From positions 1,230,001 through 1,262,000 of the forward strand of contig NZ_CP019633.1 in assembly GCF_001997385.1 (NCBI RefSeq): a stretch of DNA of 32,000 bases, written 5' to 3'. This stretch comes from Sedimentisphaera cyanobacteriorum. Lineage in GTDB: Bacteria; Planctomycetota; Phycisphaerae; Sedimentisphaerales; Sedimentisphaeraceae. The notes beneath the pieces were generated by a model. It was not told the origin of the DNA. It searched no databases and saw only the letters and a list, made by a program, of their open reading frames with translations. The stretch's first letter is position 1. Every line of letters begins with the position of its first letter. Both the position numbers and the translations under genes were made by a program. Shown one piece after another: positions 3,825 through 27,149 of the stretch.

Positions 3825-4958
3825 TCAGCTCAGGTCGTTTTTCTTAAGGTTTTCCCAGATGCAGTTAAGCTTGGCCTTGCCGGCTATAAGTTTCAGCACT
3901 CTCTCTGATGTATTCAGAATCTGGTAGTCTCTGGGCAATTCAACGCTGTTACTCGAAATATCATCAGAGGTTTGAATACGTATTGCTTCCACAATCGTAT
4001 CAGCCTCTAGACCGGTTACAACAACAGAGCCGGTGTCAACAGCTTCAGGTCGTTCTATGGCATTTCGGGGCGTTATTGCGGGGAAATTTAAGATTGAAGC
4101 TTCCTCGCAAATAGTACCGCTGTCCGATATAACGCACCTCGCCTTCATCTGCAGATTCACATAATCTATAAAACCAAAAGGCTTCATAAAACGGATTCTC
4201 TGATCCAAACCGTTTCTTTCAAGGCTTTCAAGCCTTTTTTTGGTTCTCGGATGAGTGCTCACAATTACCGGCACATCGAATTCATCAATCAGTCTCTCGA
4301 ATGCATCGAGTATCTGCCCTAAAGATTTTCTTCGATCCACATTTTCCTCTCTGTGGATGCTGGCCAAAAAGTATTTCCCTTTTTCAAGCCCCAATTCCTG
4401 AACGGCATTAGAGCCCTTGATTTTTTCAATATTGTCCATAAGGACTTCCCGCATAGGCGAGCCGGTAACATATATTCGCCTGTGAGGAAGCCCTTCTGAG
4501 ATAAGATGCCTTCTGGCGTGCTCTGTATAGCACAGATTAAAATCCGCTGTATGGTCAATAATTCGGCGGTTTGTCTCTTCTGGAACGTTTTGGTCGAAAC
4601 TTCTATTTCCCGCCTCCATATGGAAAATCGGGATATGCAGCCGTTTTGCAATGATGCCAGCTATAGAGCTGTTAGTATCGCCAAGTATAAGAACGGCGTC
4701 GGGATTTTCTGCTTTGAGTATCTCTTCGGCTTTGATTAGTATATTGCCGTAAACCTTCCCGAGGCTTGAGGTGTCCACATTCATAAAATGGTCGGGCTTT
4801 CTAACGCCAAGGTCATCAAAAAAAACCTCGTTTAGCTCATAATCATAATTCTGGCCTGTATGAACTATAATATGATCCAAATGCTTATCTAAGCGTTTGA
4901 GAACTGCCGAGAGCCTTATTATTTCCGGCCGAGTACCGAGGATGGTTACTACCTTCAT
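3825..4958 (-). CDS. fnlC: UDP-N-acetylglucosamine 2-epimerase (non-hydrolysing), FnlC/WbjD/Cap5G type
   Basis: 377 aa. Motifs MKVVTILGTRPEIIRLS, HTGQNYDYELN, LGDTNS and HMEAGNRSFD give the WecB-fold epimerase signature. Position after fnlB supports the FnlC call. Confidence 0.88.
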   Translation of the reverse strand: MKVVTILGTRPEIIRLSAVLKRLDKHLDHIIVHTGQNYDYELNEVFFDDLGVRKPDHFMNVDTSSLGKVYGNILIKAEEILKAENPDAVLILGDTNSSIAGIIAKRLHIPIFHMEAGNRSFDQNVPEETNRRIIDHTADFNLCYTEHARRHLISEGLPHRRIYVTGSPMREVLMDNIEKIKGSNAVQELGLEKGKYFLASIHREENVDRRKSLGQILDAFERLIDEFDVPVIVSTHPRTKKRLESLERNGLDQRIRFMKPFGFIDYVNLQMKARCVISDSGTICEEASILNFPAITPRNAIERPEAVDTGSVVVTGLEADTIVEAIRIQTSDDISSNSVELPRDYQILNTSERVLKLIAGKAKLNCIWENLKKNDLS

Positions 4959-4964
4959 AAAATG

Positions 4965-6074
4965 CTATACCTCTTCGTAGAATGTGTCTGGGTCTTTCGG
5001 ATCAAACGGCTCGCTAATCCAAAAAATTGTAACAAGCTGTGAGTTCCCTGTATTAGTGATATTATGCGTGTAATTAACGGGCATTTCAACCCAGCTCGGC
5101 TCATCGCCGCTTACTTTATACTCGATAACCTCTTGCGTTCCAATCCGGCGCAATTTAATGCTCGCCTGCCCCGAAACAACGCAAAATTTTTCGCTTTTTC
5201 TGGTATGATAATGATTGCCTCTTGTAATGCCGGGCTTTGTTGTAGAGAACGATACCTGCCCCGCCTCTTCAAACTTATAAACCTCTACAAAACTGCCTCT
5301 GTCATCTCTGCTTGATTTGAGATTTTTCTGCCAATCGTTTGAATCCATATAAGTAACGAAAGTATTGTACAGATCTCGCTCAAAATCACTGGAAAATGAG
5401 GGCACGAAACCGTCTGAATAGCATTTCTGGAAGCTATAAAGCAGATCCAATATTTTTGACACCCTAACGCCCTCGACTCTTGGCTTTATATGCTCCACCC
5501 TGCAGCCTGAAGTATTTTCCCTGATAAGCCCGCAAATATCCTCAACCAGATAGTTGATGTGAATCATACTAAGCTGGCCATCAACTTTTATCTCCGGCTG
5601 CTCTCCATACGCCACCTGATGGCAAAACGTTGCAACAACAGAATTGTAAAACGGCTTCCCTCCATCACCGAATACGTTGGGAACAACCATAGAAACTCCT
5701 GCAGCATCGCGATCACCGCACCATTTCTCCAGAATCTGCATAGCCGCCAGCTTACCTTTGCCGTATGGGTTATCCTTTTCAATCTGAGTGGTTGAAGAGA
5801 ATAGGATTTTGGGTTTGCTGCCCGAGCTGTCTGCCGCATCAAGGAGCTTTTGCATAAGCTCGATATTCTTATTGAATATTACGTCCGGCTCATCCCTGTT
5901 CACGCCGGCAAGATGAACAATAACATCTGCCTTTTGTGCAAAGTCTATAAGCTTGGATTCATCATCGTAGTAAGAATCCTCGAAAGGCAGGACATTGATA
6001 TCCTCTTCACGTGCGAGACGATTCTCTAAATGACCGCCGACAAACCCGCTTTTACCTGTAATGCCAACATTCAT
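4965..6074 (-). CDS. fnlB: UDP-2-acetamido-2,6-dideoxy-L-hexose 4-reductase/3-epimerase, FnlB/WbjC/CapF type
   Basis: 369 aa. An N-terminal SDR Rossmann motif (ITGKSGFVGGHL) is joined to a C-terminal cupin-like segment (GITRGNHYHTRKSEKFCVVSGQASIKL). This is the two-domain CapF layout, and the gene lies between fnlA and fnlC. Confidence 0.82.
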   Translation of the reverse strand: MNVGITGKSGFVGGHLENRLAREEDINVLPFEDSYYDDESKLIDFAQKADVIVHLAGVNRDEPDVIFNKNIELMQKLLDAADSSGSKPKILFSSTTQIEKDNPYGKGKLAAMQILEKWCGDRDAAGVSMVVPNVFGDGGKPFYNSVVATFCHQVAYGEQPEIKVDGQLSMIHINYLVEDICGLIRENTSGCRVEHIKPRVEGVRVSKILDLLYSFQKCYSDGFVPSFSSDFERDLYNTFVTYMDSNDWQKNLKSSRDDRGSFVEVYKFEEAGQVSFSTTKPGITRGNHYHTRKSEKFCVVSGQASIKLRRIGTQEVIEYKVSGDEPSWVEMPVNYTHNITNTGNSQLVTIFWISEPFDPKDPDTFYEEV

Positions 6075-6077
6075 AAA

Positions 6078-7109
6078 CTATTGCCTCTGCTCCCAGACTT
6101 CAAGCTCTTTCTGTACGTATGGAAGGCTGAGAAGGAGTTTTTCAACCTCAGGGATTCCCATCTGCCTTGTATTATGTGAGTTATAGTCCTGATTTACCAC
6201 TTCCTTCTCTTTGCCTTCAGAGAAGTACATTGTGTAGTTGAGGTCTCTATCGTCCACACCAACCCTGTAATAATCTACCATATCCTCTGCCTTCTGAAGC
6301 TCTTCTACCGTGAGAAGGGATTCATATATCTTTTCGCCGTGCCTTATCCCGATCACTTTAATTTCATTATCTGCATTCATTATGTTTCTAACTGCTTTGG
6401 CAAGATCCATCATTGTGCAGGCCGGTGCCTTGCGTACGAAAAGATCGCCCGGGCAGCCGTTTTCGAAAGCGAACAGAACAAGGCTGACTGCATCACGCAG
6501 AGGCAGCATAAAACGTGTCATATCGGGGACAGTTAGCGTTAGGGGCTGGCCCTGTTTGATCTGATTCATAAAAAGCGGAATAACCGAGCCGCGTGAACAC
6601 ATCACATTCCCGTACCGAACGCGACAGACAGTTGTATCGCCGGAATTATCGAGCCTTGAAGCCGCCGCCGAAACCTTTTCCATCAAAGCTTTCGTCATAC
6701 CCATTGAATTGATGGGATAAACCGCCTTGTCGGTGCTGAGGCATACAACTTTGTCAACGCCGTGCTTTATTGCAGACTGAATAACATTGTTGCTCCCGGA
6801 GATATTCGTCATCACAGCCTGCATCGGGAAGAATTCGCAGGACGGTACCTGCTTGAGGGCTGCGGCATGGAAAACAAGATCAACACCGTTCATCGCCTCA
6901 TCTACGGACTCCCTGTCTCGCACATCTCCGATGTAGAAGCGCAGCTTGGAGCTGGCCTTCTCTATTCGCATAAGCTCCTGCTTTAATTCATCACGGCTGA
7001 ATATGCGAATTTCCTTGCAGCCGGTTTCGAGTAGGGTATTTGTTACGGTTTTGCCGAACGAACCAGTTCCACCGGTAATTAGTACAGTTTTTCCTTCAAG
7101 TCTTTTCAT
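6078..7109 (-). CDS. fnlA: UDP-GlcNAc 4,6-dehydratase/5-epimerase, FnlA/WbjB/CapE type
   Basis: 343 aa. Motifs KTVLITGGTGSFGKT, FHAAALKQVPSCEF, LSTDKAVYPINSMGMTKALMEK and YGNVMCSRGSVIPLF match the extended-SDR CapE/FnlA/PseB family pattern. Confidence 0.9.
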   Translation of the reverse strand: MKRLEGKTVLITGGTGSFGKTVTNTLLETGCKEIRIFSRDELKQELMRIEKASSKLRFYIGDVRDRESVDEAMNGVDLVFHAAALKQVPSCEFFPMQAVMTNISGSNNVIQSAIKHGVDKVVCLSTDKAVYPINSMGMTKALMEKVSAAASRLDNSGDTTVCRVRYGNVMCSRGSVIPLFMNQIKQGQPLTLTVPDMTRFMLPLRDAVSLVLFAFENGCPGDLFVRKAPACTMMDLAKAVRNIMNADNEIKVIGIRHGEKIYESLLTVEELQKAEDMVDYYRVGVDDRDLNYTMYFSEGKEKEVVNQDYNSHNTRQMGIPEVEKLLLSLPYVQKELEVWEQRQ

Positions 7110-7178
7110 AATCCACCAAAGATAATTTGTTTTTCAGTATGTTATCCAAAGGACGGAAAAAATCAAATAAAGCTTTTG

Positions 7179-9503
7179 CTAATCTTTGCCGGAATCTTTT
7201 TTGTCTGCCCTTTTTCTAAGATTCATTAGATATTCTGATGTTATCTCTTCTGGGGGCTTTGCCATAAACTCATCCAGCAGATCCTGATGCCCTTTAAGTG
7301 CAACTGCATCTTCAAGACCTTCCCGCCAAAGCTGCCACCTCTTAGAAGGAACTATCGGCTCATATATTGCATCTTCAGGGAAATCAGGATTACTTCCTGC
7401 ATAAATCACACCATATATATATATAGAACTTTCATTAAAATGATTTTCATTAAAGTAACCTTCTCTGTCAGCATAAGTCCAAAATCCGGCACCCGCCAAA
7501 CCTAATGCCCTAGCCTGAATAGATAAAATTCTAAAACAATTTTTGTATTTAGTGTGTTTTTCAATGTTGTATGGATATCCTCGCCGAGGCATAGTTCCGT
7601 AACACCAAACTTTGCTGCAATTTTCTTTAATCAGCTTAATGTCTTTCCTGCGATTAACAAAGCTGTTTTGACCAACACACCAAATATCAACGTATGGAAT
7701 TGCTCTTTTTATCTCTTCGGTACTATCACCCATAGAATTTGCGTATATATTTATCATTGGGTTAGTACTCCTTATTATTTTTGCAGCTCTAATAAAATCA
7801 TCATGCAGTTCCTCATCATAAAGGTAGATTGCATAATTATCATAGCTGTAACCAAGATCACCCATGTATTTAACAAGGCGTCTAATATAAGAAGCAAATT
7901 TCCGGCCCCACTCTTCAGAATACATGTCTTGCCCAAAATATTTTTCTCTGCCAGAGCCGAACCCTAGCAAAAGCAGCACAAAATCTGCATGCTTTCTGAG
8001 CTGAAGTTCTTTTTTGAGCCTTGGATTTATTAGCACTATGTCAGAATCTCTCTTCTTCGAAGATATCTTGCTTACAAAAAGTGAAGGATGTATAACCGTA
8101 ACATTCAGATAATGCCGGCTTAGATCGTCAACAGCAAGATGAGGAAATTCATTAGTAAAAGTATTACTTCCGGTTATATAATCCCAGTTGCAGGTTTTGA
8201 AGTCTGGCTTTTCAGGGAATTTCCTGCGTGCTATTTCTATATCAGCTTTGATAACCTGTTTAGGCTTCTCTTCACTGTTCTCACATCGTACAAGAACCGC
8301 GGAAGAATAATTTCCCGGTCTCAAAGACTTTGAATTGAATTCAGCAAATAACTGCACGGTTTCTCCCGGTTCGATTTCAAAGCTTTTTCCTCCCTGCAAG
8401 ACGAGGGGGTCAGCCAAAAAACCTATATTCTTCGAATACACATAAACAGCCCGCCTCGGGATCATAAACGCCTGAGAAGGCAAATAGTCCCCCCCCCGCT
8501 TCAAAGGTGAAATATTTAAGCTGAACTGCAAACTTTTATCTGAGCAGTTTACAATATTAAAAGCGTTCAGGTCGTGTTCATTCTGCCAAGCATAGTACTC
8601 AAGCTCAGAGATGCTGTTAGGGCCCGCCGGCAGGTCTTCATATTTGAGAACCTTAAGCGGGGCCGCTGAAGTGCAGTACCAAGGGACATTATGTTTTGCA
8701 TTTAAGTATTCCGCCCTGATTTTATCAAAGAGCCTCTCAAGAGATTCTAACTCTTTGAAAATGCCCAGCTCCCTTTCAAAATCTTTGAGTTTGTCTTTGT
8801 AGGCTTTAATTTTAGAATCAAATTGTTTAATCTTAATGCCGGAACTTTTGAAAGAAGTTTGCAGCGATTGAATATTACGTTCAAGCTGACGCAGCCTTTC
8901 TGCAAACTCGATTGCTTCGCTGTTTACAACTGCAGGCCCATCCAGCTCGGGACAATCCTGTTCAGCAGCGAAAATCTTAATTTCATCACAAAAGAATGAA
9001 CTCATAGGCATAACTAATAATTTTACAAATCTTGCCTTGGTATTAAAATTTAACTTAAACCCTTTCCTTTTTGTTAAGGTTGTATCGTAAAATATACAAA
9101 CTTTTGAGCTCTTATAAGAAACAGCTCTGTAACATTCAGCATCTACAGAGGCTAAACCAATAATATAGTCGGGGTACTGGACTCCGCCTTTTCCCCCTCC
9201 GGTAGTATGTATAACTACCTCTGATATGTTTTTCATTTCCTCCAAATCAATTGTTATAGAAATAAAAGTATGATTGTTCCAACCAACAGTTTCACTTTTA
9301 TTCGAACTGTACCATATAGCACCGTCAGAAGCTGGAGAAGCCCTCTTTCCATCTGTCAGCTGTCTGTAATCTCCTGCATCTTTCGTTAAATGGTAATTCG
9401 GCTCAGGGACAAGCGTATAGTCTTTATTCAATGCCAAATTCTCGGCGGCCGGCAGATTGGCAGTTACAAAAAACACAAATAATATCAGTATGAATTTCTT
9501 CAT
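7179..9503 (-). CDS. Secreted multidomain protein: signal peptide, discoidin/F5-8-type-C-like beta-sandwich, coiled coil, DUF4091/GH123-like putative glycoside hydrolase region
   Basis: 774 aa. The N-terminus MKKFILILFVFFVTANLPAAE looks like a Sec signal. Residues ~20-185 (NLALNKDYTL...RQLTDG...ISITIDLEEMKNISEVVIHT...CDEIKIF) resemble carbohydrate-binding discoidin modules. Residues ~195-265 are heptad-like (ERLRQLERNIQSLQ...KDKLKDFERELGIFKELESLERLF). The C-terminal ~500 aa, ending in WQLWREGLEDAVALK, recalls DUF4091/GH123 proteins. It is certainly a CDS; the functional call is motif-based only. Confidence 0.55.
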   Translation of the reverse strand: MKKFILILFVFFVTANLPAAENLALNKDYTLVPEPNYHLTKDAGDYRQLTDGKRASPASDGAIWYSSNKSETVGWNNHTFISITIDLEEMKNISEVVIHTTGGGKGGVQYPDYIIGLASVDAECYRAVSYKSSKVCIFYDTTLTKRKGFKLNFNTKARFVKLLVMPMSSFFCDEIKIFAAEQDCPELDGPAVVNSEAIEFAERLRQLERNIQSLQTSFKSSGIKIKQFDSKIKAYKDKLKDFERELGIFKELESLERLFDKIRAEYLNAKHNVPWYCTSAAPLKVLKYEDLPAGPNSISELEYYAWQNEHDLNAFNIVNCSDKSLQFSLNISPLKRGGDYLPSQAFMIPRRAVYVYSKNIGFLADPLVLQGGKSFEIEPGETVQLFAEFNSKSLRPGNYSSAVLVRCENSEEKPKQVIKADIEIARRKFPEKPDFKTCNWDYITGSNTFTNEFPHLAVDDLSRHYLNVTVIHPSLFVSKISSKKRDSDIVLINPRLKKELQLRKHADFVLLLLGFGSGREKYFGQDMYSEEWGRKFASYIRRLVKYMGDLGYSYDNYAIYLYDEELHDDFIRAAKIIRSTNPMINIYANSMGDSTEEIKRAIPYVDIWCVGQNSFVNRRKDIKLIKENCSKVWCYGTMPRRGYPYNIEKHTKYKNCFRILSIQARALGLAGAGFWTYADREGYFNENHFNESSIYIYGVIYAGSNPDFPEDAIYEPIVPSKRWQLWREGLEDAVALKGHQDLLDEFMAKPPEEITSEYLMNLRKRADKKDSGKD
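8489..8497. repeat. Homopolymeric C9 tract (G9 on the coding strand) inside the 774-aa gene
   Basis: The plus strand reads agtCCCCCCCCCgct. On the minus strand the tract encodes K-R-G-G-D (aag cgg ggg ggg gac) around codon 336. It is the longest G/C run I found in the window; the next longest are 6 nt. Confidence 0.9.
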
Positions 9504-9627
9504 TAGTTTTGGCTCAGTATTTCAAAAAAGGTTAAGATGTCCAGTAAATTTAACGTCTTGGACAAGACATTTTCAGGGTTAGTCTATATATCTATAAAAC
9601 TTACAATCGAATTATGCACTAAAATTA

Positions 9628-10239: not shown

Positions 10240-11361
10240 TTAGCCTAAAACCTTCTTTATTGTTAGAATTTGGGTGTGCGGATTATACTTTTCCTCTATT
10301 ACTTTGTAACACTTAGTTCTAATATCTTCTCTATCTCTTTCAGAAAGACCAAGCCAAGACCATAATTTAATTGACAAATCGGCTGTTGAACCTTGATCGA
10401 AGAAACTGCCCGTAACACCTTCCTCAATCGCCTCAAACTCGGGACCATGTTTTGTGAAATCATTATGTGTAACAACAGGAGTGCCATAAACAAAGCTGTG
10501 AATTACAGTTAAACCAATATTCCCCGGCGTAACACAGACATCAGCATTATATATTAATTCACCAAGTACTTCCTCTTCATAGCAAGGGCCGTAAAACCAT
10601 ACATAATCAGCCAGTCCATAATCGGAGACAAGCTTTTCAAGGCCGGTATTCTCATTATCTTTTCCTATTACTACCAAATTAAATGACTTGCCCTCATTGT
10701 TCAAAAGATTTAACGCTTCAACTGCCAAATCAAGCCTTTTTATTTTTTGAATCCTGCCGATATAAACAGCCACAGGATTATCATTGCCAAAATGCTTTTT
10801 ATATACATCGCTTTGGGTGAGCTTCTCTCGAATTTTGAGCTGCTTATCATAGTCAAGCGAATTATAAATGCATACAAGCTTATCAGGCTTAAACCCTTCT
10901 TTTATCATCAAATTGCGGGCGTAATCCCCGTAAAGCAAAACCTTAGTACATAACGAAAAGAAAACCTTCTTTATTATCGTTTTTATTATTCCTTCGCGTC
11001 CATACCAGCCGTGTGTCCAGAGATATGTTTTCTTGCCCAAAATCTTGGCAAATAAAAGCACAAACCAAGTGGAAATGCAGTAAGGCTCCCCTGTTAGTAT
11101 AAACTTTTGGTAATGCCTTTTAAAAACAAGGCTTGCAGCACCTCTTTGATACGAAAATTTATTTACGAATAAAGCTTTTAACTCTTTCCTAAATCCTTCA
11201 AGCTCTGAATAGTCAAATTTCTTCACATCTGAAAGAGACCGGTCTGCAAAATAGAAATCACAGCAAAGCTCAGAATCCATAAGCTTGTAGATAGGCTTAC
11301 GGTAATGATGAGCTAAATTGAATAAGCAGCAGTTAGTAGGTTTTTTACTCATTTTCAACAT
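10240..11361 (-). CDS. GT-B glycosyltransferase (GT4-like)
   Basis: Track ORF 10240-11373 begins with TTG; ATG alternatives lie at 11361 and 11352. The C-terminal half (VVIGKDNENTGLEKLV...ADVCVTPGNIGLTVIHSFVYGTPVVTHNDFTKHGPEFEAIEEGVTGSFF) shows the GT-B donor-site E-x7-E pattern. Confidence 0.78.
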   Translation of the reverse strand: MLKMSKKPTNCCLFNLAHHYRKPIYKLMDSELCCDFYFADRSLSDVKKFDYSELEGFRKELKALFVNKFSYQRGAASLVFKRHYQKFILTGEPYCISTWFVLLFAKILGKKTYLWTHGWYGREGIIKTIIKKVFFSLCTKVLLYGDYARNLMIKEGFKPDKLVCIYNSLDYDKQLKIREKLTQSDVYKKHFGNDNPVAVYIGRIQKIKRLDLAVEALNLLNNEGKSFNLVVIGKDNENTGLEKLVSDYGLADYVWFYGPCYEEEVLGELIYNADVCVTPGNIGLTVIHSFVYGTPVVTHNDFTKHGPEFEAIEEGVTGSFFDQGSTADLSIKLWSWLGLSERDREDIRTKCYKVIEEKYNPHTQILTIKKVLG

Positions 11362-12298
11362 ACTTATTCGCAATTAATTCAGATATTTTAAAGCTTTTCA
11401 TTTTAAGAAAACCTATCGAAACAAGAATTCGCCATAAAAACCTAATTGATAATGACAGTCTTTCAAAACCCTTTTCAAATCTCAAATAATTTTCAGCTCT
11501 TCTTATAGGATCTTTATGAATATTATTTTTAAGAACTTTATCTTTCATTATTATCAACTCAGCATCAGAAGAATTAGGCCTGCTGTGAAAATTTCTATGA
11601 AATTTAAAATTATTTAAAGCATCTTGCCCCCTAACAACTTCTTTTCTTCCGTTACTAGTATGGCCATAGTCATGAAATTGATGCAGAGCTAGGATTTTTA
11701 AGGTGCCATTAATTATAGGAATTTTGTTTCTCATACAATATAAAACCAAAGCCTCGTCATAACCTGCTCTACCTATTACTAGAGCCGGGAGATCATTCCA
11801 CATCCCTCGTCTAAAAATGAAATAATCCATACCGGTTGGAGAGTGCAATTGCAATTTGCAAGTTTCAAACAATTGTTTTAATTGTCCTAACCAATGTTGA
11901 TTTAACTCAAAATCTACATCTTTCATGAGGTCAATCCGCTGCCCAGTTACCAAAAATTCATTTAACTTGGCTTTTGTAATAATTTTAACAGCGTCTGCAA
12001 TGGTTTCATTTAGCAAAATATCACAATTTAGATAACACTGTATATCATGCTTAGCATTTTTTTTTGCATGATTTACTATACTGTTAAATAAAGGAATCCC
12101 AGACAGACTACACTCAATATCTGGAACGTTAATCGTACCAAGATCTTTGCATGCTTCTGCAACTCCTTCACCTTCACCATAAACTAAAACTTCGACATCG
12201 GCAGCAACCCTTAACCAACTTTGAATAGCCTTCTTCTGTATCCGGCCAGTGTGGCCATAAAATGGCTTGGGACTCGTTAAAAACGTTATCATAGCCAA
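11345..12298 (-). CDS. Uncharacterised protein, possibly a GT-A-like glycosyltransferase
   Basis: 317 aa. The N-terminus ITFLTSPKPFYGHTGRIQKKAIQSWL is followed by a possible DxD-like site (CYLNCDILL). I cannot assign a family from sequence alone. Confidence 0.35.
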   Translation of the reverse strand: MAMITFLTSPKPFYGHTGRIQKKAIQSWLRVAADVEVLVYGEGEGVAEACKDLGTINVPDIECSLSGIPLFNSIVNHAKKNAKHDIQCYLNCDILLNETIADAVKIITKAKLNEFLVTGQRIDLMKDVDFELNQHWLGQLKQLFETCKLQLHSPTGMDYFIFRRGMWNDLPALVIGRAGYDEALVLYCMRNKIPIINGTLKILALHQFHDYGHTSNGRKEVVRGQDALNNFKFHRNFHSRPNSSDAELIIMKDKVLKNNIHKDPIRRAENYLRFEKGFERLSLSIRFLWRILVSIGFLKMKSFKISELIANKYVENE

Positions 12299-12979: not shown

Positions 12980-13951
12980 TTATTTTGCGATTAAAAAATC
13001 TTCATAAGCCAGTTTTATTCCATCTTTAAGGCTTATGCTCGGTTTCCAGCCAAGAGAGAATAATCTGCTTACATCAAGCAGTTTTCTAGGGGTGCCGTCC
13101 GGCTTTGAAGTATCCCATTTTATCTCTCCATCAAATCCGACCACCTCTTTCACTATTTCAGCCAGCTCTTTGATGGTCTGGTCTTCGCCGCAGCCAATAT
13201 TAATCAGCGGGGCAATATCTTCATGACCTACAAACTTAGAATACATATCATCTTCCAAATCAAGCAAGTGCACGCAAGCTCTGGCAAGATCATCGCTGTA
13301 CAAAAATTCTCTGTAAGGGCTTCCGGTACCCCATAGCTCTACCGAATCTCTGTTCTCACTCTTGGCCAAATGCATTTTGTGAATCAAACCAGGGATAACA
13401 TGCGAATTCTGCAAATCATAATTATCACCAGGGCCGTAAAGATTTGTGGGCATAACTGCTAAATATCTTGTCCCATACTGCCGGTTGTAAGACCAGCACA
13501 TCTCGATACCGCCAATCTTAGCAAGAGCGTAAGGACGGTTTGTCGGCTCGAGCTCTCCTGTAAGCAGGTGTTCCTCTTTCATTGGCTGAGGACAGTGCTT
13601 GGGGTAAATACATGAAGAACCGAGGAAAAGAAGTCTTTTAACACCCGCCAAATATGCGTTGTGAATTATATTTGTTTGTATGCGCATATTCTCATAGAAA
13701 AACTGTCCGGGATAGGTGTTGTTAGCTATAATACCGCCAACCTTTGCCGCACACTGAATAATAAAGTCCGGTTTTTCCCGCTGCATAAAATCTGCAACAA
13801 CCTTGCTGTCAAGCAGGTCAAGCTCATCGATAGACTTTAGCAGAAGGTTATCAAACCCTCTTCGCTGCAGCTCCCTGATAATTGCTGAACCTACTAAGCC
13901 AGTATGCCCGGGAACATAAATTTTCGAATTCTTATCAATAAATCCGCTCAT
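12980..13951 (-). CDS. fcl: GDP-L-fucose synthase (GDP-4-keto-6-deoxy-D-mannose 3,5-epimerase/4-reductase)
   Basis: 323 aa. Motifs KIYVPGHTGLVGSAIIREL, ELDLLDSKVVADFMQREKPDFIIQCAAKVGGIIANNTYPGQFFYENMRIQTNIIHNAY, LGSSCIYPK and PTNLYGPGDNY. Lies directly downstream of gmd. Confidence 0.92.
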   Translation of the reverse strand: MSGFIDKNSKIYVPGHTGLVGSAIIRELQRRGFDNLLLKSIDELDLLDSKVVADFMQREKPDFIIQCAAKVGGIIANNTYPGQFFYENMRIQTNIIHNAYLAGVKRLLFLGSSCIYPKHCPQPMKEEHLLTGELEPTNRPYALAKIGGIEMCWSYNRQYGTRYLAVMPTNLYGPGDNYDLQNSHVIPGLIHKMHLAKSENRDSVELWGTGSPYREFLYSDDLARACVHLLDLEDDMYSKFVGHEDIAPLINIGCGEDQTIKELAEIVKEVVGFDGEIKWDTSKPDGTPRKLLDVSRLFSLGWKPSISLKDGIKLAYEDFLIAK

Positions 13952-13962
13952 TACTCACCTCT

Positions 13963-15072
13963 CTACTCATTATAATCCGGCGTACGGAATCCGTGTTTCC
14001 TTGAGACGACATCGTGTCTTGCAATTTCCATATCCGCCTCAACCATTTCCTTTACAAGCTCTTTAAAACTTGTGCGCGGATTCCATCCAAGCTGATTTTT
14101 CGACTTTGAAGGATCGCCCAAGAGAGTTTCAACTTCTGCCGGCCTGAAATACTTTGGATCTATCTTTACGACGATATTATCATCAGAATCTCTTTCTTCG
14201 CAAATATGATTTTTGGCAACGGCAATCTCATTTACGCCTTCGCCCTGCCATTCAATATCAATTCCAGCTTCCCTGAACGCAAGCTCTACAAATTCACGTA
14301 CCGAATGCTGCTCGCCAGCAGCAATAACGTAATCATCGGGCTTATCCTGCTGAAGAATCAGCCACATTGCCTCCACATAATCCCTCGCATGCCCCCAATC
14401 TCTTAGCGAATCAATATTGCCGAGATAAAGGCGGGGCTGAAGCCCCATTTTTATTCTAGCGGCGGCTCGGGTGATTTTTCGAGTAACAAAAGTTTCGCCT
14501 CTTAGCGGGGATTCGTGATTGAAGAGTATGCCGTTGCAGGCAAACATATTGTAAGATTCCCGGTAGTTCACGGTTATCCAGTATCCGTATATCTTAGCAG
14601 CAGCATAAGGGGAACGGGGATAGAAAGGCGTGCTTTCATTTTGGGGAATCTCCTGCACCTTCCCGTAAAGCTCTGATGTAGAGGCCTGATATATTCTGGC
14701 TTTATCTGCCAAACCTGCATTCCTCACTGCTTCAAGGATGCGAAGTGTTCCTAAAGCATCTACGTTGCCGGTATATTCCGGTGTTTCAAATGAGACCTTC
14801 ACATGGCTCTGGGCAGCAAGATTATATATCTCATCCGGCCGAACCCGCTCTATAATTTGAGCAACATTTGTTGAGTCTGTCATGTCTCCGTAATGAAGGG
14901 AAAATTTACAGTCCTTTTCATGAGGATCTTGATAGAGATGGTCTATGCGGTCAGTGTTAAACATAGAGCTGCGGCGTTTAATCCCGTGAACCTCATATCC
15001 CTTATTCAAAAGAAACTCAGCTAAATAAGCTCCGTCCTGACCTGTTATTCCTGTTAATAATGCTTTTTTCAT
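13963..15072 (-). CDS. gmd: GDP-mannose 4,6-dehydratase
   Basis: 369 aa. Motifs [79 protein letters not shown] and [21 protein letters not shown]. Confidence 0.95.
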
Positions 15073-16329: not shown

Positions 16330-16335
16330 ATGTCT

Positions 16336-16500
16336 TTAATACCACTTGGGGGCAGAAAGAATACTTTGGTAGTTCCAGAAATGCTCATGCCAGACTGGAC
16401 TGTGGAAAAACATGAAATAATCGTAGCTGCGGATAAAAACCAAAAGCCCCAAAAAGACTGTTGCAAAAGTATAACCAGAAGAGAGTAAAATAAAATACAT
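16336..16500 (-). CDS. Possible 54-aa small membrane protein
   Basis: Below the track's length cut-off. Hand translation gives MYFILLSSGYTFATVFLGLLVFIRSYDYFMFFHSPVWHEHFWNYQSILSAPKWY, with one clear hydrophobic helix. It fills the gap between two GT genes, starting 3 nt after the stop codon (16506-16508) of the upstream GT gene and ending 6 nt before the downstream start. No homology evidence. Confidence 0.25.
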   Translation of the reverse strand: MYFILLSSGYTFATVFLGLLVFIRSYDYFMFFHSPVWHEHFWNYQSILSAPKWY

Positions 16501-16505
16501 AAATA

Positions 16506-17805: not shown

Positions 17806-19041
17806 CTAACTTAAAACGCCAAGTCTTTCAGGGTCAGCATATCTTTTTGCATTATGGAAATCAGCTATCACCCATCCCCAGAAAAGTGCATTAAGAATAA
17901 AACTATAAGGTATGGTAATAGACATCTCAGTATTACCAATCCAAAAATACATTGCTAAAGAAGCTGCGAAAGCCCCTGCGTGCCTGTAATTAAATCTCAT
18001 CATGTCAAGAAAAATCTTGCAAATTTCATAAATAAATAATAAGTAAAAGATAAGACCTATGACACCATAGGCAAATAGAATGTCAACAATATCGTTATGA
18101 GCACGGCCTATTCCAACTCTATTAGCTGCCCCATAACCATTACCAATTATCCACTCAAAAAAAGATTGAGATGAAAGATGATTGAATGTCGCAAGAAAGA
18201 TGCCTATCCTACCAGACCCCTGATCCTTTACTACATTTTCCATCCTCGTTCCAATAGCAAAACCCATCGCTGATAACTCTTTGTATAGAATTGCCAATAT
18301 TATAAACAAAAGGGCTAAGCCTAAAAACGCAAGAAGTTTTCGAGATATTCCAATACCTTTAAATTTAAGAGTGCAAAAATAAAAAGAAGCTACAGCAGTT
18401 AAATAACCAACTAACGGAGCTCGCTTAACTGAAACAATAATAGCCGCAAAAATTAAAACTAAATAAAAAGACTTGACTACCTTTGATTTTAACAACAAAA
18501 TGGGTGGCAAAAAATAGGATATATAAAATATCGCATTATAACCTCTGGTGCTTTCTACTGCAAACCCCTGTCTGATTCTAAAAAAGGTAACCAAATAAAA
18601 ACTAACGGCTACAACAGAAGCAAAAGTAAAATATTTTAAGGTATTAATTTTCAATGATCCAAAATAAGACAATACAATTATCCATAACCAATAACTTATA
18701 TCGATCATTATCATAGGCCATTCTATGGGAGTATAAGCTCTGGAAGCTAACAATGATAGAAACCCAGCAACTGAATACAAAAAACCGTAATATATAAACC
18801 TTCGTTCCTTAACCCAGGCAGTTGAATTTCCTATAAATATTAAAAATGCAATAAGGATAATGACAAGCATATACCATGCATAAGGGGATATGCTTGTACC
18901 TATCTTTTGCTCTAAATACATATTAGCCATATTGTGATGATAACGAAGAAAAGTACTTATCATCAAAATCAAGGCTAACAAAGATTCAATATATAAGATT
19001 GAACCATGTTCCGGATTATTTTTAGTTTTTATATAATTCAT
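17806..19041 (-). CDS. wzy: Polytopic membrane protein, O-antigen polymerase / O-antigen-ligase-like (Wzy family)
   Basis: 411 aa with about 10 or more hydrophobic segments by eye. A periplasmic-loop-like stretch (GNGYGAANRVGIGRAHNDIVDILFAYGVIGLIFYLLF) resembles the Wzy_C motif. ATGA overlap with the upstream GT2 gene. Confidence 0.72.
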   Translation of the reverse strand: MNYIKTKNNPEHGSILYIESLLALILMISTFLRYHHNMANMYLEQKIGTSISPYAWYMLVIILIAFLIFIGNSTAWVKERRFIYYGFLYSVAGFLSLLASRAYTPIEWPMIMIDISYWLWIIVLSYFGSLKINTLKYFTFASVVAVSFYLVTFFRIRQGFAVESTRGYNAIFYISYFLPPILLLKSKVVKSFYLVLIFAAIIVSVKRAPLVGYLTAVASFYFCTLKFKGIGISRKLLAFLGLALLFIILAILYKELSAMGFAIGTRMENVVKDQGSGRIGIFLATFNHLSSQSFFEWIIGNGYGAANRVGIGRAHNDIVDILFAYGVIGLIFYLLFIYEICKIFLDMMRFNYRHAGAFAASLAMYFWIGNTEMSITIPYSFILNALFWGWVIADFHNAKRYADPERLGVLS

Positions 19042-21248: not shown

Positions 21249-22193
21249 TTACCAATAACACCCATTTTCAATTTTTTTGTAGTTTTTAGGTTTTTCCTCT
21301 GCCAAAGGATAGACCCAGTTTTCATTAAATTGATGAGATATAACAGAGCTATTCTCCCAACGGCCACCTTTTATGCCAAAGAGAATCTGAGTTGCTCCAC
21401 CCATATGTATTGCCTGCTTTCCCAAACTTTTCACATGAGCGGCAAGTGGAAAGCCGTATGCCCCGCATCCGATTATCGCCACATCAAAATCTGTATTGTT
21501 AACATTATACTTCATATGTTCTAAAGCCTCAAACCAATCTTTAAATTCGCTCTTTTCGCCGGCGATTGTCTGAACAGCTTTTATTGTTAATAATTCAAAA
21601 TCCGGCAATATATCGGGGTTATTAAACAGATTTTGTCTTTTTTTATACTGGTTTATAATAGTTTGTTCAAATGGGTGGATGACCAAAACTTTTTTACCTT
21701 TCAAGTTTTTAGACCAAGGAAAATTATGATAGTAAGGTTCTAAAGAAACTAATTCGGCTATTTCAGCTTCAGCATATTTTTTTAGAATGTAATCTTCTTG
21801 TGATGTTCGTAAAACACCTATCAAATCCGCTTTTTTTGTTGAATCAATCATCAAATCAGTAAAATTATCTAAAACTCTGGGGTTGGCATCAAATATCCCA
21901 GCATTTATTCTTGCACTGTTAATTAAAGCATCAGAATACGATGACCTGAAATTAAATTCTTGTTCTATGCATTGCTTAACAATATTAGTTTCCACAGTCC
22001 CATAGCGACCAGCAAAAAATGGATTCCCTTCAATGATTGATCTTGATATAAGATTATTACCTTCCTTTCTATTTAATATATTTACACCTGCATATTTTTT
22101 AATTTTTATCTTTGATTTTATAAGTTTTTTTTCTAAAAAAATACGGACTTTATTTCGAAACAAGTAAACAAGGTACTCAATTTTATTTAGCAT
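21249..22193 (-). CDS. Uncharacterised protein, possibly a GT-D-fold (DUF1792-like) glycosyltransferase
   Basis: 314 aa. The motifs FFAGRYGTVETNIV and VAIIGCGAYGFPLAAHVKSLGKQAIHMGGATQILFGIKGGRWE recall DUF1792-type proteins found in polysaccharide loci. The assignment is from memory of the motif only. Confidence 0.35.
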   Translation of the reverse strand: MLNKIEYLVYLFRNKVRIFLEKKLIKSKIKIKKYAGVNILNRKEGNNLISRSIIEGNPFFAGRYGTVETNIVKQCIEQEFNFRSSYSDALINSARINAGIFDANPRVLDNFTDLMIDSTKKADLIGVLRTSQEDYILKKYAEAEIAELVSLEPYYHNFPWSKNLKGKKVLVIHPFEQTIINQYKKRQNLFNNPDILPDFELLTIKAVQTIAGEKSEFKDWFEALEHMKYNVNNTDFDVAIIGCGAYGFPLAAHVKSLGKQAIHMGGATQILFGIKGGRWENSSVISHQFNENWVYPLAEEKPKNYKKIENGCYW

Positions 22194-22220: not shown

Positions 22221-22970
22221 TCATTTAGATCTAATCCAGCACAAAATGGGAATTATGTGGGGCTTTATTAAGCCTTTACACTTAGCGATGAAGCTTGGTT
22301 TTTGCGGTTCGTAAAAACCTCTTTCATAAAAATCAAAGTTAATTCCATGTTTTTCACAAACAGGTACAATACTTTGAAACCATTTACCTCTACCAATTGC
22401 TTGCTCATGATGTATTAAAGGCTTATAGCTTCCCCAAATTTCTAGGCTATTTTTTCGAGCAACTACATCTCCCAATGTCTCAAAATCCCATGGGCTGAAA
22501 TTAGGCCTCAGCACTTTAAGCAAAGACTCTTTCTTCCATATAGAAACCTGGGCATTAATCCTATACGGCTCCCCCGGTAAAACTTCACCAAAAATTTGGC
22601 CATCTTGAGGTAGTGTTTTGGGTTTTGGGCAAGCATGCAGTCCCAAACAGTCTATACCATTAGCTTTTATAAATTCATAAGCCGACTCAATTGCCGCATC
22701 ATCTACTAGCTCAATGATAAAAAAATCTTCCAAAATAATCACTACATAATCTTCTTCTATCATCTCAAGCATTTTAGAAACTGTTAATCCCCAGCAAGTG
22801 TCTTCACCTATTTTTAAATCTGTTACCCAATCAATATCTGCGCTTTTATAATTAGTTCCAAGATAAACCGGATATCTGCAATTTGGCCAATACTCTTTAA
22901 ATAACTTAAAAAAAGCCTGCCAAAGAAAACTATATTTATCGAAGGACGGCACTAAAACAGCCATACTCAT
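22221..22970 (-). CDS. Uncharacterised cluster protein (possible glycosyl- or other transferase)
   Basis: Track ORF 22221-22985 starts at TTG; ATG codons lie at 22970 and 22964. The sequence MSMAVLVPSFDKYSFLWQAFFKLFKEYWPNCRYPVYLGTN...VVIILEDFFI resembles small proteins seen in capsule/O-antigen loci. No recognisable catalytic motif. Confidence 0.3.
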   Translation of the reverse strand: MSMAVLVPSFDKYSFLWQAFFKLFKEYWPNCRYPVYLGTNYKSADIDWVTDLKIGEDTCWGLTVSKMLEMIEEDYVVIILEDFFIIELVDDAAIESAYEFIKANGIDCLGLHACPKPKTLPQDGQIFGEVLPGEPYRINAQVSIWKKESLLKVLRPNFSPWDFETLGDVVARKNSLEIWGSYKPLIHHEQAIGRGKWFQSIVPVCEKHGINFDFYERGFYEPQKPSFIAKCKGLIKPHIIPILCWIRSK

Positions 22971-23006
22971 AATGAAACCTTTCAAAATGATGGTTATAGA
23001 AATTAT

Positions 23007-24563: not shown

Positions 24564-24571
24564 ATGATGTC

Positions 24572-24832
24572 CTATATAAGTATCAAATTTAAGTGAAGAT
24601 TACTTAATTGAAGCTTGAAAGAGCTGAAAATATCCTGAATCGCAGGCTTATTGCATATATCAGCTTGAACAAAGCTATAGCGAACCGAATCCTCAACCTC
24701 TTTGAGCGAGGACAGGTTGCCGGCGTAGGTGAGCTTGTCTATGTTAAGCACACTATGGTCGGTATTTTTTATTATATGTCTTATTACGGCCGAGCCAATA
24801 AAGCCCGCACCGCCTGTTACTATTATTTTCAT
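24572..24832 (-). pseudogene. rfbB: 5' fragment of dTDP-glucose 4,6-dehydratase (rfbB/rmlB), only ~73 homologous codons
   Basis: The 86-aa [76 protein letters not shown] matches the RmlB N-terminus ([14 protein letters not shown]...DKLTYAGN...ADIC). It then diverges into [13 protein letters not shown] and stops. Full-length RmlB is about 350 aa. Confidence 0.8.
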
Positions 24833-24871
24833 TTAATTCAGTTGTAAGTAATAAGTTTTTAGTTTTATGCT

Positions 24872-26750: not shown

Positions 26751-27149
26751 TTACTCAGAATCTATACATAAGATATTGATAACATTAATGTGCAGGCGTT
26801 TGGATAGAGCTAAAATATTAGCAATTTCAGTTCTATCAGGCATAATTAGACCACCTATCGGATAACGCTCTTCAACATAGAATTTTGTAGCCTTTGCAAG
26901 CAACAACACATCTGCATCTGAAATACAGATGCAATCAGAAACAAGTTCATAAAGTTCAACAAGATTGTGTGTTTTAGGGATTCTGGCATTTTCAAAAGCC
27001 ATAAAAGCCTTTAGCATTTTCTCCAAAGCCTGTTGCAACTCTTGGCCAATTACATCAGTATAATGATTGGCATTCATCAAAATTTCGGCGGCAGAAAGAT
27101 TATGAAAAGATTTTTCCAGCCATTGTTTTGCAGCAGTTTTATTTGGCAT
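26751..27149 (-). CDS. HEPN-domain protein (putative RNase toxin of an MNT-HEPN pair)
   Basis: Track ORF 26751-27200. The likely start is ATG 27149 (MPNKTAAKQWLEKSFHNLSAAEIL), overlapping the MNT stop by 11 nt. It contains ENARIPKTHNL, an R-x4-H motif, and a FYVEERYP segment typical of PF05168-like HEPN proteins. Confidence 0.78.
   Translation of the reverse strand: MPNKTAAKQWLEKSFHNLSAAEILMNANHYTDVIGQELQQALEKMLKAFMAFENARIPKTHNLVELYELVSDCICISDADVLLLAKATKFYVEERYPIGGLIMPDRTEIANILALSKRLHINVINILCIDSE

Follow-up and report, generated by a model that had tools for sequence, protein, structure and literature searches.

A lectin-plus-helix variant of the GH123 family encoded within Wzx/Wzy-type surface-glycan loci of Planctomycetota

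The genome of Sedimentisphaera cyanobacteriorum carries, in the 32,000-nucleotide stretch analysed here (contig NZ_CP019633.1, positions 1,230,001 to 1,262,000; hereafter the window), a string of surface-polysaccharide biosynthesis genes that also includes a gene for a hydrolase-like protein with a predicted export signal. This raised the question of what a candidate glycan-cleaving enzyme might do among genes that build a glycan, and whether it belongs to the locus at all.

Gene product, predicted export and domain architecture

The open reading frame at 7179..9503 on the minus strand was confirmed as a real gene, with a single ATG-to-stop frame of 774 aa, and a homology search matched the 774-aa protein at 100% to a protein of S. 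cyanobacteriorum. The GenBank model of this protein (P0001) is 750 aa long; its start lies at codon 25, so that the signal peptide is left out, and its database annotation is 'hypothetical protein' only. Single-sequence searches of Pfam, NCBIfam and the PDB with the target gave nothing above threshold; the distant matches reported below were reached with family profiles (A1 and A3) and not with the single target sequence. An exhaustive search of 1.84 billion representatives returned 1500 relatives at E<=1e-3, with a hydrolase family of ~800 representatives at E<=1e-10, which overturned an impression of extreme rarity derived from 14 matches in a word-indexed search.

A Kyte-Doolittle scan bore out the original prediction that this is the only protein of the gene string with a single N-terminal hydrophobic leader (KD10 = 3.62). 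The other hydrophobic proteins of the string are multi-pass, the Wzy-like protein (17806-19041) having 7 segments and Wzx (23007-24563) having 12. A comparable leader was found in 78/82 relatives with enough N-terminus, and in 75 of those relatives small residues occupy positions -1/-3, just ahead of a conserved ENLAL start. From the hydropathy heuristic and the conservation of the leader we infer Sec export of the hydrolase, while the leader may instead be an uncleaved signal anchor. The features of the gene are as follows.

9444..9503, minus strand: signal peptide, residues 1-20, MKKFILILFVFFVTANLPAA, predicted cleavage at about A19/A20
8964..9443, minus strand: discoidin / F5-8 type C (CBM32-like) beta-sandwich, residues 21-180
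8688..8936, minus strand: helical linker with heptad pattern, residues 190-272, predicted helices 194-221, 228-244 and 249-271
8214..8687, minus strand: GH123 N-terminal beta-sandwich, residues 273-430, holding D365 and F386
7296..8213, minus strand: GH123 catalytic (beta/alpha)8 barrel including the DUF4091 part, residues 431-736
7812..7817, minus strand: catalytic DE motif D563-E564, at the end of barrel strand 557-560 (AIYLYDE); translates to DE
7179..7295, minus strand: C-terminal helical tail and stop codon, residues 737-774, AF2 helices 740-748 and 756-771

Two AF2 models were used, the first with a pLDDT of 77 and the second with a pLDDT of 92 and a pTM of 0.91. [quoted passage not shown] It ends in a tail that is poorly conserved in the family alignment (15% identity).

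The discoidin-like assignment of the N-terminal domain was upheld by its fold, which matches the F5/8 domain of BT0459 and CBM32 modules. Foldseek placed the domain model on the BT0459 F5/8 domain (6q63) with an rmsd of 2.2 A, and gave TMt values of 0.69-0.71 against the CBM32 structure 4a42 (0.71) and lectinolysin 3lei (0.70). The Pfam F5_F8_type_C model (PF00754) scored the target alone below threshold (E 0.08; 13.5 bits against a cut-off of 28.2) and matched 19/59 family members at E<1e-3 (best 1e-8), while a profile comparison with the CBM32/F5-8 type C domain gave E 1.8e-7. The domain core is typical of CBM32/F5-8 (NLAL...DG...W...VGW...DL...R[YF]V...F.DEIEV). By fold, then, the domain is discoidin-like, and the target sequence alone falls below the Pfam sequence threshold. 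No other domain of the family is as well conserved (33% mean identity). The adjacency of gmd and fcl genes in related loci and the lectinolysin match had brought up the idea of a fucose-binding F-type lectin; the likeness to 3lei is at the level of fold only, and this candidate was rejected, the H-x(~26)-R-x-D-x(4)-R/K motif being present in 0/84 members.

The coiled-coil spacer originally proposed between lectin-like and hydrolase-like regions was sustained as a heptad pattern, with a/d core occupancy of 0.75-0.88 over residues 189-235 and a weaker pattern up to residue 272; in the AF2 model the region is not one continuous helix but is broken into three (pLDDT 88-97). Its only Pfam match is a weak one of Tropomyosin type, and across the family its length is kept at 74-101 aa at a sequence identity of only 15%. 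The pTM of the whole-protein model suggests that the modelled helices form a fixed intramolecular module or bundle more than a free stalk.

GH123 membership and the active site

The resemblance of the C-terminal region to GH123/DUF4091-type enzymes was substantiated both by the family profile and by the AF2 model, each of which matches solved GH123 enzymes. Profile A1 matched 8k2j (NgaDssm) at E 2.6e-23, and profile A3, run against the PDB, matched 8k2j at E 4.9e-32 over residues 364-774, 8k2f at 4e-20 and 8k2h at 1.5e-12. The family profile also aligns to the N-domains of 8k2j, 8k2f, 8k2n and 5l7r; Pfam Glyco_hydro_123_N_2 matches the relatives P0007 and P0008, and the GH123 N-terminal domain has all-beta secondary structure in the model. 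When the second model was searched against the PDB with Foldseek, the top 22 matches were all GH123 (E 8e-26 to 1e-19, TMt 0.59-0.70), and the next fold followed at E 1e-10, a gap of 10 orders in E-value. The top 21 matches of the first model were likewise GH123 only.

The Pfam catalytic model GH123_cat (PF13320) gave no match in the target even at E<=10, whereas it was found in 12/59 relatives at E<1e-3 (best 1.9e-11), P0007 scoring 25.7 bits against a cut-off of 23.1. Since relatives and family profile match where the target does not, the clade appears as a divergent branch of GH123 that is under-detected by the current Pfam model. Together with the 'hypothetical protein' label and the leader-less database model, this miss indicates that annotation pipelines are blind to the family.

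The C-terminal motif singled out in the original prediction, WQLWREGLEDAVALK, is present and aligns with the SrRWeawReGvEDyeyL block common to all GH123-type enzymes. A search for a conserved acidic pair, as would be expected of an enzyme, found D563/E564 invariant in 84/84 relatives, in alignment with the DE of NgaDssm (ADE) and with D327/E328 of NgaLy. Mutagenesis of other GH123 enzymes has assigned stabilisation of the 2-acetamido group to the Asp and the acid/base role to the Glu, and a nine-residue GH123 signature has been published that comprises the DE pair and NgaLy D95, W115, Y392, G427, W431, Y466 and R478 (PMC11087588). The target has 8/9 of the signature residues. Beside the DE pair, D365 (the equivalent of NgaLy D95), Y635, G671, W675, Y701 and R722 are present, each kept in 80-83/84 relatives, the equivalences of Y701 and R722 being drawn from the HMM alignment and spacing. 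The position of NgaLy W115 is F386 in the target, with W in 66/84 relatives and F in 4/84.

The protein thus falls within GH123 as expanded by Sumida et al. 2024, who brought in endo-type ('oligosaccharide-releasing') members and could not name natural substrates for them (PMC11087588). The suggestion that it might be an enzyme of a new type therefore gives way to a place within a known family.

Integration into Wzx/Wzy-type loci

The gene is flanked by gaps of the size originally given, 69 nt and 124 nt:

9504..9627, minus strand: upstream gap, 124 nt, with no terminator-like site and one weak sigma-70-like match
7110..7178, minus strand: downstream gap, 69 nt, adjoining the fnlA-like gene, with no terminator-like site

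They are not the two largest of the gene string, as had been claimed, since gaps of 176 nt (16330-16505, between two GT4 genes) and 308 nt (24564-24871) are larger. The sigma-70-like match in the upstream gap (9543..9516) is weak at 9/12, and counts of such matches are not above those in shuffled sequence. RNA structure was at background in both gaps, the upstream fold being no better than shuffles (z = +1.2) and the downstream gap giving z = +0.46. At 0.39/0.36, the GC/GC3 of the gene is in keeping with the rest of the locus. On these grounds the idea of a separately acquired or separately regulated unit was dropped, with neither a promoter, terminator or RNA-fold signal in the gaps nor a deviant composition to sustain it. 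In relatives only 4-30 nt separate the gene from those next to it, or the reading frames overlap.

Besides enzymes resembling FnlA/B/C, the locus encodes an aminotransferase of the PseC/LegC kind accompanied by a GNAT, as well as UDP-ManNAc/GlcNAc-dehydrogenase-like and weakly TviC-like enzymes. These sugar-pathway genes point to several 2-acetamido sugars in the locus product, which makes a substrate for a GH123-type enzyme plausible. No UDP-GalNAc-forming 4-epimerase could be demonstrated in the window, and a beta-GalNAc linkage in the product is for that reason not established.

Recurrence of homologues beside such loci was surveyed in species-representative genomes queried with a 12-sequence alignment, and the expectation that they recur in Wzx/Wzy loci was borne out. 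Forty-three of 45 related loci, from ~45 Planctomycetota species spanning Sedimentisphaerales, Pirellulales and Phycisphaerae, carried at least 2 glycan markers, at 3.1 per 10 kb flank, almost all of them lying on the same strand. Of the loci from distant relatives, 1/17 reached that number, at 0.14 markers per 10 kb (Fisher p = 9e-12 vs the close clade); since the marker HMMs derive from the window and from close loci, highly divergent glycan genes of distant phyla may be under-detected in this comparison. Within Planctomycetota the clade thus appears as a regular part of surface-glycan loci of the Wzx/Wzy type.

The content of these loci varies. In S. salicampi and in MAGs, close homologues lie inside Wzx/Wzy/GT4 loci with differing sugar-pathway genes, and the order that recurs is SDR-gmd-fcl, hydrolase, unknown gene, flippase, pyruvyl transferase, Wzy and three GT4 genes. 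A specific tie to the FnlA/B/C (L-FucNAc) genes was considered and rejected, the commonest arrangement upstream being a dehydratase-like SDR with gmd and fcl. A conserved partner gene of unknown function common with the window was sought and none was found; in Pirellulales-type loci the conserved neighbours are a flippase-like gene and a pyruvyl transferase, with no counterpart beside the window gene. The two distant relatives examined lie in lyase/sulfatase loci, distant full-length relatives from Armatimonadota being found among heparinase II/III-like lyases, a sulfatase, DUF4838 and CBM6, and P0011 (23% identity) has no glycan context. Fold and architecture alone therefore do not imply a biosynthetic role.

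Proposed function and comparison with known systems

The near-constant place of the gene in surface-polysaccharide clusters suggests trimming or release of the locus's own polymer. The protein is most likely a retaining beta-N-acetylhexosaminidase, periplasmic or extracellular, and gene context would make the polymer of its own locus the substrate. On balance we favour a Sec-exported, multi-domain GH123 hydrolase, of the beta-N-acetylhexosaminidase or galactosaminidase type with substrate-assisted catalysis, that is a standing part of Wzx/Wzy loci and acts on their own polymer, and we hold this to be somewhat better than an even chance. The hydrolase would be co-transcribed with the glycan genes, as co-direction and the lack of terminators suggest, and exported, with cleavage of the leader near A19/A20 predicted from its features and conservation. 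The discoidin/CBM32-like domain, judged by its fold, would bind the polymer, and the ~80-aa three-helix module, given the high pTM, would hold that domain against the catalytic body. D563 would orient the 2-acetamido group of the substrate towards an oxazolinium intermediate, with E564 as general acid/base, and a beta-(1,2-trans)-linked HexNAc would be cleaved with retention, as shown for other GH123 enzymes and as the invariant residues suggest here. The candidate substrate, on locus context, is the N-acetyl-sugar-rich polymer of the surrounding genes, and internal cuts may trim, size, release or clear it in the periplasm or at the surface, in the manner of PslG, PelA, BcsZ and ExoK.

A stronger version holds that the clade is an obligatory periplasmic endo-beta-N-acetylhexosaminidase of the Planctomycetota Wzx/Wzy line, which sets chain length or releases polymer and partly replaces Wzz/PCP. 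No Wzz/PCP-type chain-length regulator was found in the window; we nonetheless regard this version as rather unlikely.

Whether such an enzyme cuts internally or at chain ends was judged from loop lengths in sequence alignments. An insertion of ~25 aa that follows barrel strand 3 in NgaDssm is missing from the family, and the loop joining strand 8 to helix 8 is as long as that of the cleft-type enzymes NgaCa and NgaDssm; cutting is probably internal, of the oligosaccharide-releasing type. Alternatively, an exo-acting maturation or editing enzyme could process the repeat unit, lipid-linked or nascent, in the periplasm by taking off a 'cap' of terminal HexNAc, making no internal cuts. The same locus context would suit it, and strict exo action on beta-GalNAc marks the classic GH123 enzymes and those of Group 4; Group 3, the closest group, is dual exo/endo (PMC11087588). 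However, judged by alignment lengths, the family has none of the insertions by which exo-type enzymes shut off the -2 subsite, and the strong conservation of a carbohydrate-binding module is more in keeping with binding of polymer. We also know of no precedent for a cap-editing step in Wzx/Wzy pathways, and consider this alternative doubtful.

Sedimentisphaera and its relatives are polysaccharide degraders, and the enzyme could be used to forage on exogenous glycans (cyanobacterial-mat EPS or glycosaminoglycan-like), its place in a biosynthetic locus being due to chance. The Armatimonadota relatives amid lyases and a sulfatase, and P0011, accord with such a role. Co-directional embedding in the 43/45 loci, across Sedimentisphaerales, Pirellulales and Phycisphaerae and despite differing locus content, argues against it, as do the tight intergenic distances in relatives and the finding of no transporter, regulator or other degradative gene near the hydrolase in the window; foraging is thus improbable.

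Retaining hexosaminidase-type enzymes can transglycosylate, and conserved presence in biosynthetic loci with a strongly conserved lectin domain would also suit a transglycosylase that moves glycan segments to a chain, a cell-wall component or a protein and so remodels or anchors the polymer. Yet nothing points to a change that would suppress hydrolysis, the acid/base Glu being intact, a Wzy polymerase is already present in every locus examined, and no GH123 transglycosylase was found in the literature searched, PMC11087588 included, so that we rate this quite improbable. A catalytically dead lectin or scaffold that binds polymer or organises the export machinery would account for the conservation of the N-terminal domain and for a helical module able to mediate protein-protein contacts, but is extremely improbable in view of the invariant D563/E564 (84/84) and the substrate-contacting Y635 and W675 (82-83/84), which are not expected of a pseudo-enzyme.

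Sumida et al. 2024 speculated that oligosaccharide-releasing GH123 enzymes act on capsule, O-antigen or EPS repeat polymers, and theirs was the only report found in a literature search for DUF4091/GH123 in EPS, O-antigen or capsule loci (PMC11087588). In the present clade a candidate substrate is encoded beside the enzyme in more than 40 species, including the cultured S. cyanobacteriorum, which offers a direct route to the substrate of a GH123 endo-enzyme. If the chain-length or release reading is true, this would be the first defined natural substrate for an 'oligosaccharide-releasing' GH123. The finding would also add GH123 to the polysaccharide-locus hydrolases, in the Wzx/Wzy pathway, where these are far less studied than in synthase-dependent systems, and would inform the poorly known surface glycans of Planctomycetota.

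The hydrolases and lyases of EPS loci include PslG (GH39), PelA (GH166), BcsZ (GH8), ExoK (GH16) and AlgL (PL5). They share with the target, as a functional analogy, the placement of an exported glycan-cleaving enzyme inside a polymer operon; in contrast to it, they have unrelated folds and families, and most serve synthase-dependent and not Wzx/Wzy pathways. To our knowledge, none of the five has substrate-assisted HexNAc chemistry or a discoidin-plus-helical N-terminus. The genetic hallmark of self-polymer hydrolases, a position within and co-oriented with the biosynthetic cluster that is conserved across relatives, was found for the target gene.

NgaDssm (GH123 Group 3, PDB 8K2J/8K2K; PMC11087588) is the best match to the target both by profile (E 4.9e-32) and by structure (Foldseek E 8e-26, TMt 0.70). 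It shares the beta-sandwich, the (beta/alpha)8 barrel and the location of the DE motif, and has a signal peptide, as is predicted for the target, but is only ~14% identical, has 542 aa with neither discoidin domain nor helical module, and carries the strand-3 insertion. It is an oligosaccharide/monosaccharide-releasing beta-N-acetylgalactosaminidase from a deep-sea metagenome with no reported link to a biosynthetic locus (PMC11087588). NgaCa (Group 1, endo-type, 8K2F/8K2G; profile E 4e-20, Foldseek E 2e-22) resembles the target in its minimal cleft-type barrel devoid of pocket-closing loops, and differs in having no lectin or helical N-terminal extension; its -2/-3 subsite tryptophans are W197, W218 and W249, and long repeat-unit, EPS-like natural substrates were proposed for it by the authors (PMC11087588). 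The classic exo enzymes (BvGH123 5L7R, CpNga123 5FQE and NgaP) share the two-domain fold (Foldseek E 3.5e-24 to 1e-19) and use a substrate-assisted, retaining mechanism via the DE pair, the same as is proposed for the target. Unlike it, they are catabolic enzymes of gut and soil bacteria acting on glycosphingolipid or mucin glycans, with an active-site pocket closed by extra hairpins, and their profile relation to the target family is weak (E 6e-6).

For the N-terminal domain, the closest counterpart is the CBM32/F5-8 domain of the GH20 enzyme BT0459 (6Q63), superposable at 2.2 A with 20% identity. That domain is C-terminal, whereas the target domain precedes the catalytic body with the helical module in between. 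What is new here is thus a lectin-plus-helix variant of a known GH123 family that is tied to biosynthetic loci, a link already hinted at in 2024.

Reading frame and domain architecture

The reading frame of the hydrolase (7179-9503, minus strand, 774 aa) was borne out. A public protein model from S. cyanobacteriorum that is 100% identical ("hypothetical protein") has 750 aa, begins at codon 25 and lacks the leader.

9432-9503, minus strand, codons 1-24, the predicted signal peptide region left out of the public model

Since at least 90% of 84 relatives conserve N22, A24 and L25 and a hydrophobic leader is present in 78 of 82, the ATG at 9503 was taken as the true start. The public 750-aa annotation would mislead localisation prediction of any kind. 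In a hydropathy scan, the hydrolase alone among the locus proteins displayed a single N-terminal hydrophobic segment, in agreement with the claim that it is the only gene of the locus with an evident export leader.

When searched alone, the hydrolase sequence gave no Pfam, NCBIfam or PDB match above threshold, only discoidin hints and coiled-coil noise. Relatives at ~30% identity, however, match PF13320 (GH123_cat, formerly DUF4091) and the GH123 N-terminal domain. A profile of 12 family members matched the solved GH123 enzyme NgaDssm (8K2J) with E = 2.6e-23, while a 59-member profile gave a best E of 4.9e-32 over residues 364-774 and also matched NgaCa (4e-20), NgaAt (1.5e-12), NgaLy, BvGH123 and NaNga. 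Two AlphaFold models were built, from 12 sequences (pLDDT 77) and from 84 sequences (pLDDT 92, pTM 0.91), and with both the top 21-22 Foldseek matches were GH123 structures only; for the better model these had E-values of 8e-26 to 1e-19 and TMt of 0.59-0.70, the next fold being ten orders of E-value away. The N-terminal 160 residues of the model superpose on F5/8-type C/CBM32 domains (BT0459, rmsd 2.2 A; CBM32, TMt 0.71) and on the lectin domain of lectinolysin (TMt 0.70). Pfam F5_F8_type_C matched 19 of 59 relatives, and the F-type fucolectin motif was found in none of the 84. Three helices are predicted for residues 190-272, and the heptad pattern is strong at 189-235; the segment keeps its length (74-101 aa) but not its sequence. 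A pTM of 0.91 for the whole chain suggests a fixed packed module in the model, not a free stalk. Model, profiles and Foldseek agree in essence with the original prediction of a discoidin-like domain, heptad helices and a GH123/DUF4091-type C-terminal part.

A word-indexed search returned 14 proteins only. When 1.84 billion representatives were scanned exhaustively with HMMER, 1500 matched at E<=1e-3, of which 778 had E<=1e-10 and 123 had E<=1e-30; most of the best 150 are 750-830 aa long and align from residue ~5-20 to ~735. Judged by these counts and this near-full-length coverage, proteins of the lectin-helix-GH123 architecture are predicted to form a sizeable family that is uncharacterised. 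Among species-representative genomes, its members occur mainly in Planctomycetota (Sedimentisphaerales, Pirellulales, Phycisphaerae), with remoter ones in Armatimonadota, Victivallales/Lentisphaeria and Verrucomicrobiia.

Active site and mode of cutting

GH123 has been redefined as a large family made up of classic GH123 and Groups 1-4, with nine universally conserved residues, among them a DE motif shown by mutagenesis and thiazoline complexes to carry out substrate-assisted catalysis (Sumida et al. 2024, PMC11087588). These signature residues were mapped onto the hydrolase by HMM alignment, with the numbering of the 8K2N chain offset by +3.

Signature residues of NgaLy, their equivalents in the hydrolase and their occurrence in the 84 relatives
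D95: D365, 80/84
W115: F386, W in 66/84, F in 4
D327/E328: D563/E564, 84/84
Y392: Y635, 83/84
G427: G671, 83/84
W431: W675, 82/84
Y466: Y701, 83/84
R478: R722, 80/84

Eight of the nine are present, the one replacement (F386) being conservative, and the acidic catalytic pair on which the enzymatic assignment had been staked is found as D563/E564. The hydrolase is predicted to be a live GH123-type enzyme, not a pseudo-enzyme.

Exo-specificity in GH123 has been attributed to insertions that follow strands 2, 3 and 8 of the barrel and shut the -2 subsite (PMC11087588). In the alignments the family is without the NgaDssm insertion after strand 3, and the loop after strand 8 has the length seen in cleft-type enzymes; both features weakly favour an open cleft and an endo-acting enzyme. 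The strongest rival, an exo-acting editing enzyme, would call for a shut subsite, and of the insertions responsible the one after strand 3 is missing.

The glycan locus and the settings of homologues

The hydrolase gene lies inside a Wzx/Wzy-type glycan locus. A co-directional gene run on the minus strand extends from before 831 to ~28.5 kb of the window and holds many GT4 and GT2 glycosyltransferases, FnlA/B/C-like enzymes, gmd and fcl, hexapeptide and GNAT acetyltransferases, DegT-type aminotransferases, a 12-TM Wzx-type flippase and a 7-TM Wzy-like protein; beyond it rpsB, tsf and gmhA lie on the opposite strand. A second DegT/aminotransferase-like ORF (MNDLILLSAPYFAGNEKKYVNECMES...; 1-~810, minus strand) is cut by the left window edge, so the locus extends past the window. 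Four of its genes had no NCBIfam match and, at the thresholds used, at most a borderline Pfam match:

11345-12298, minus strand, no Pfam match
17806-19041, minus strand, no Pfam match, 7 predicted TM segments, probably the Wzy polymerase
21249-22193, minus strand, borderline GT-D-like Pfam match only
22221-22985, minus strand, no Pfam match

At the upstream end, between an NDP-sugar dehydrogenase and an SDR epimerase, a HEPN-domain protein (26751-27200, minus strand, Pfam 60 bits) overlaps a 112-aa ORF without family match (27139-27477, minus strand); the two look like a HEPN/MNT-type toxin-antitoxin pair.

Several 2-acetamido sugars could plausibly come from the locus; a UDP-GalNAc-forming epimerase was not positively identified in it, and it holds no pyruvyl transferase within the window. 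GC content is mosaic: 0.44-0.48 in the fnlA/B/C-like genes, 0.43-0.45 in gmd/fcl and 0.55 (GC3 0.70) in the NDP-sugar dehydrogenase, against 0.33-0.39 in the glycosyltransferases, wzx, the wzy-like gene and the hydrolase. This difference suggests different histories for sugar-nucleotide and serotype-specific modules.

GC-rich parts of the locus (fnl-like, gmd/fcl, NDP-sugar dehydrogenase)
3825-7109
12980-15072
24872-26173

The hydrolase gene had been proposed to be separately acquired or regulated, being flanked by the two largest gaps in the gene string. Its gaps of 124 nt and 69 nt are both exceeded by one of 176 nt between two GT4 genes (16330-16505), the largest inside the gene string, which may be an internal transcription-unit boundary. 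Neither gap beside the hydrolase gene contains a terminator-like hairpin, their RNA is unstructured, and the upstream gap has one weak promoter-like match, with counts no higher than in shuffles. GC/GC3 of the gene is 0.39/0.36, like most of the locus (the fnl, gmd and fcl genes being the outliers), and in relatives it abuts or overlaps its neighbours. The proposal of a separate unit is thus unsupported.

In Pfam contexts, the S. salicampi homologue (44% identity) lies within a Wzx/Wzy/GT locus whose sugar-pathway genes are largely different, two MAG homologues (46% and 39%) adjoin Wzy, GT4 and FnlA/B/C genes, and a 31% homologue directly follows an SDR gene, gmd and fcl. Eight marker HMMs built from Pfam-verified proteins (GT4, GT2, SDR epimerase/dehydratase, 2-epimerase, Wzy, Wzx, DegT, hexapeptide transferase) were then searched in flanks of up to 10 kb per side at 80 loci.

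Glycan markers at loci flanked by 8 kb or more
Close clade (related Planctomycetota loci): 45 loci, 242 markers, 3.1 per 10 kb, at least 2 markers at 43 loci
Distant relatives: 17 loci, 4 markers, 0.14 per 10 kb, at least 2 markers at 1 locus

The linkage of homologues to glycan loci, whose absence would have counted most against the original proposal, was found in the close clade, and the two groups differ with Fisher p = 9e-12; virtually all close-clade markers are on the strand of the hydrolase gene. One gene order recurs in the close clade: SDR-gmd-fcl, hydrolase, unknown gene, MOP-type flippase, pyruvyl transferase, Wzy, three GT4 and GNAT. In the commonest arrangement (~26 Pirellulales/Sedimentisphaerales loci), the gene after the hydrolase is a 382-aa ORF without Pfam match (12414-13562 in L021, one such locus), and next come a MatE/MOP-like flippase and then a polysaccharide pyruvyl transferase. 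This arrangement suggests pyruvylated, fucose-containing polymers in these species.

In contrast, full-length distant relatives at 25% identity in two Armatimonadota MAGs (L063 and L067, +/-8 kb) are in a catabolic setting, beside heparinase II/III-plus-alginate-lyase-type proteins, a sulfatase, DUF4838/GH67N and a CBM6 protein. These genes make up a glycosaminoglycan-like degradation locus, unlike the biosynthetic Planctomycetota context. A foraging enzyme, the next rival, would fit the former setting better than the latter. The picture is of a degradative enzyme family, one large clade of which is now a fixed resident of biosynthetic loci.

Function and relation to known GH123 enzymes

The hydrolase is most likely an exported retaining beta-N-acetylhexosaminidase acting on the N-acetyl-sugar-rich polymer of its own locus, most probably GalNAc-type in specificity and cutting internally. 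By analogy with PslG, PelA, BcsZ and ExoK, its role would be the trimming, sizing, release or periplasmic clearance of the polymer. A transglycosylase in place of a hydrolase is a less favoured reading of the same enzyme, and a dead lectin is at odds with the retained signature residues.

The GH123 family and its chemistry are already known. From STRING neighbourhoods, a possible link of some members to capsule or O-antigen has been proposed, as has the possible degradation of repeat-unit exopolysaccharides by oligosaccharide-releasing members, no substrate being identified there (PMC11087588); DUF4091 is scarcely mentioned in the literature searched. By profile score and structure, Group 3 (dual endo/exo) is the nearest characterised group, with Group 1 (endo) next. 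New here are an N-terminal architecture that is distinct and conserved, an embedding in Wzx/Wzy loci shown quantitatively and across the phylum, and the direct handle on a natural substrate that results.
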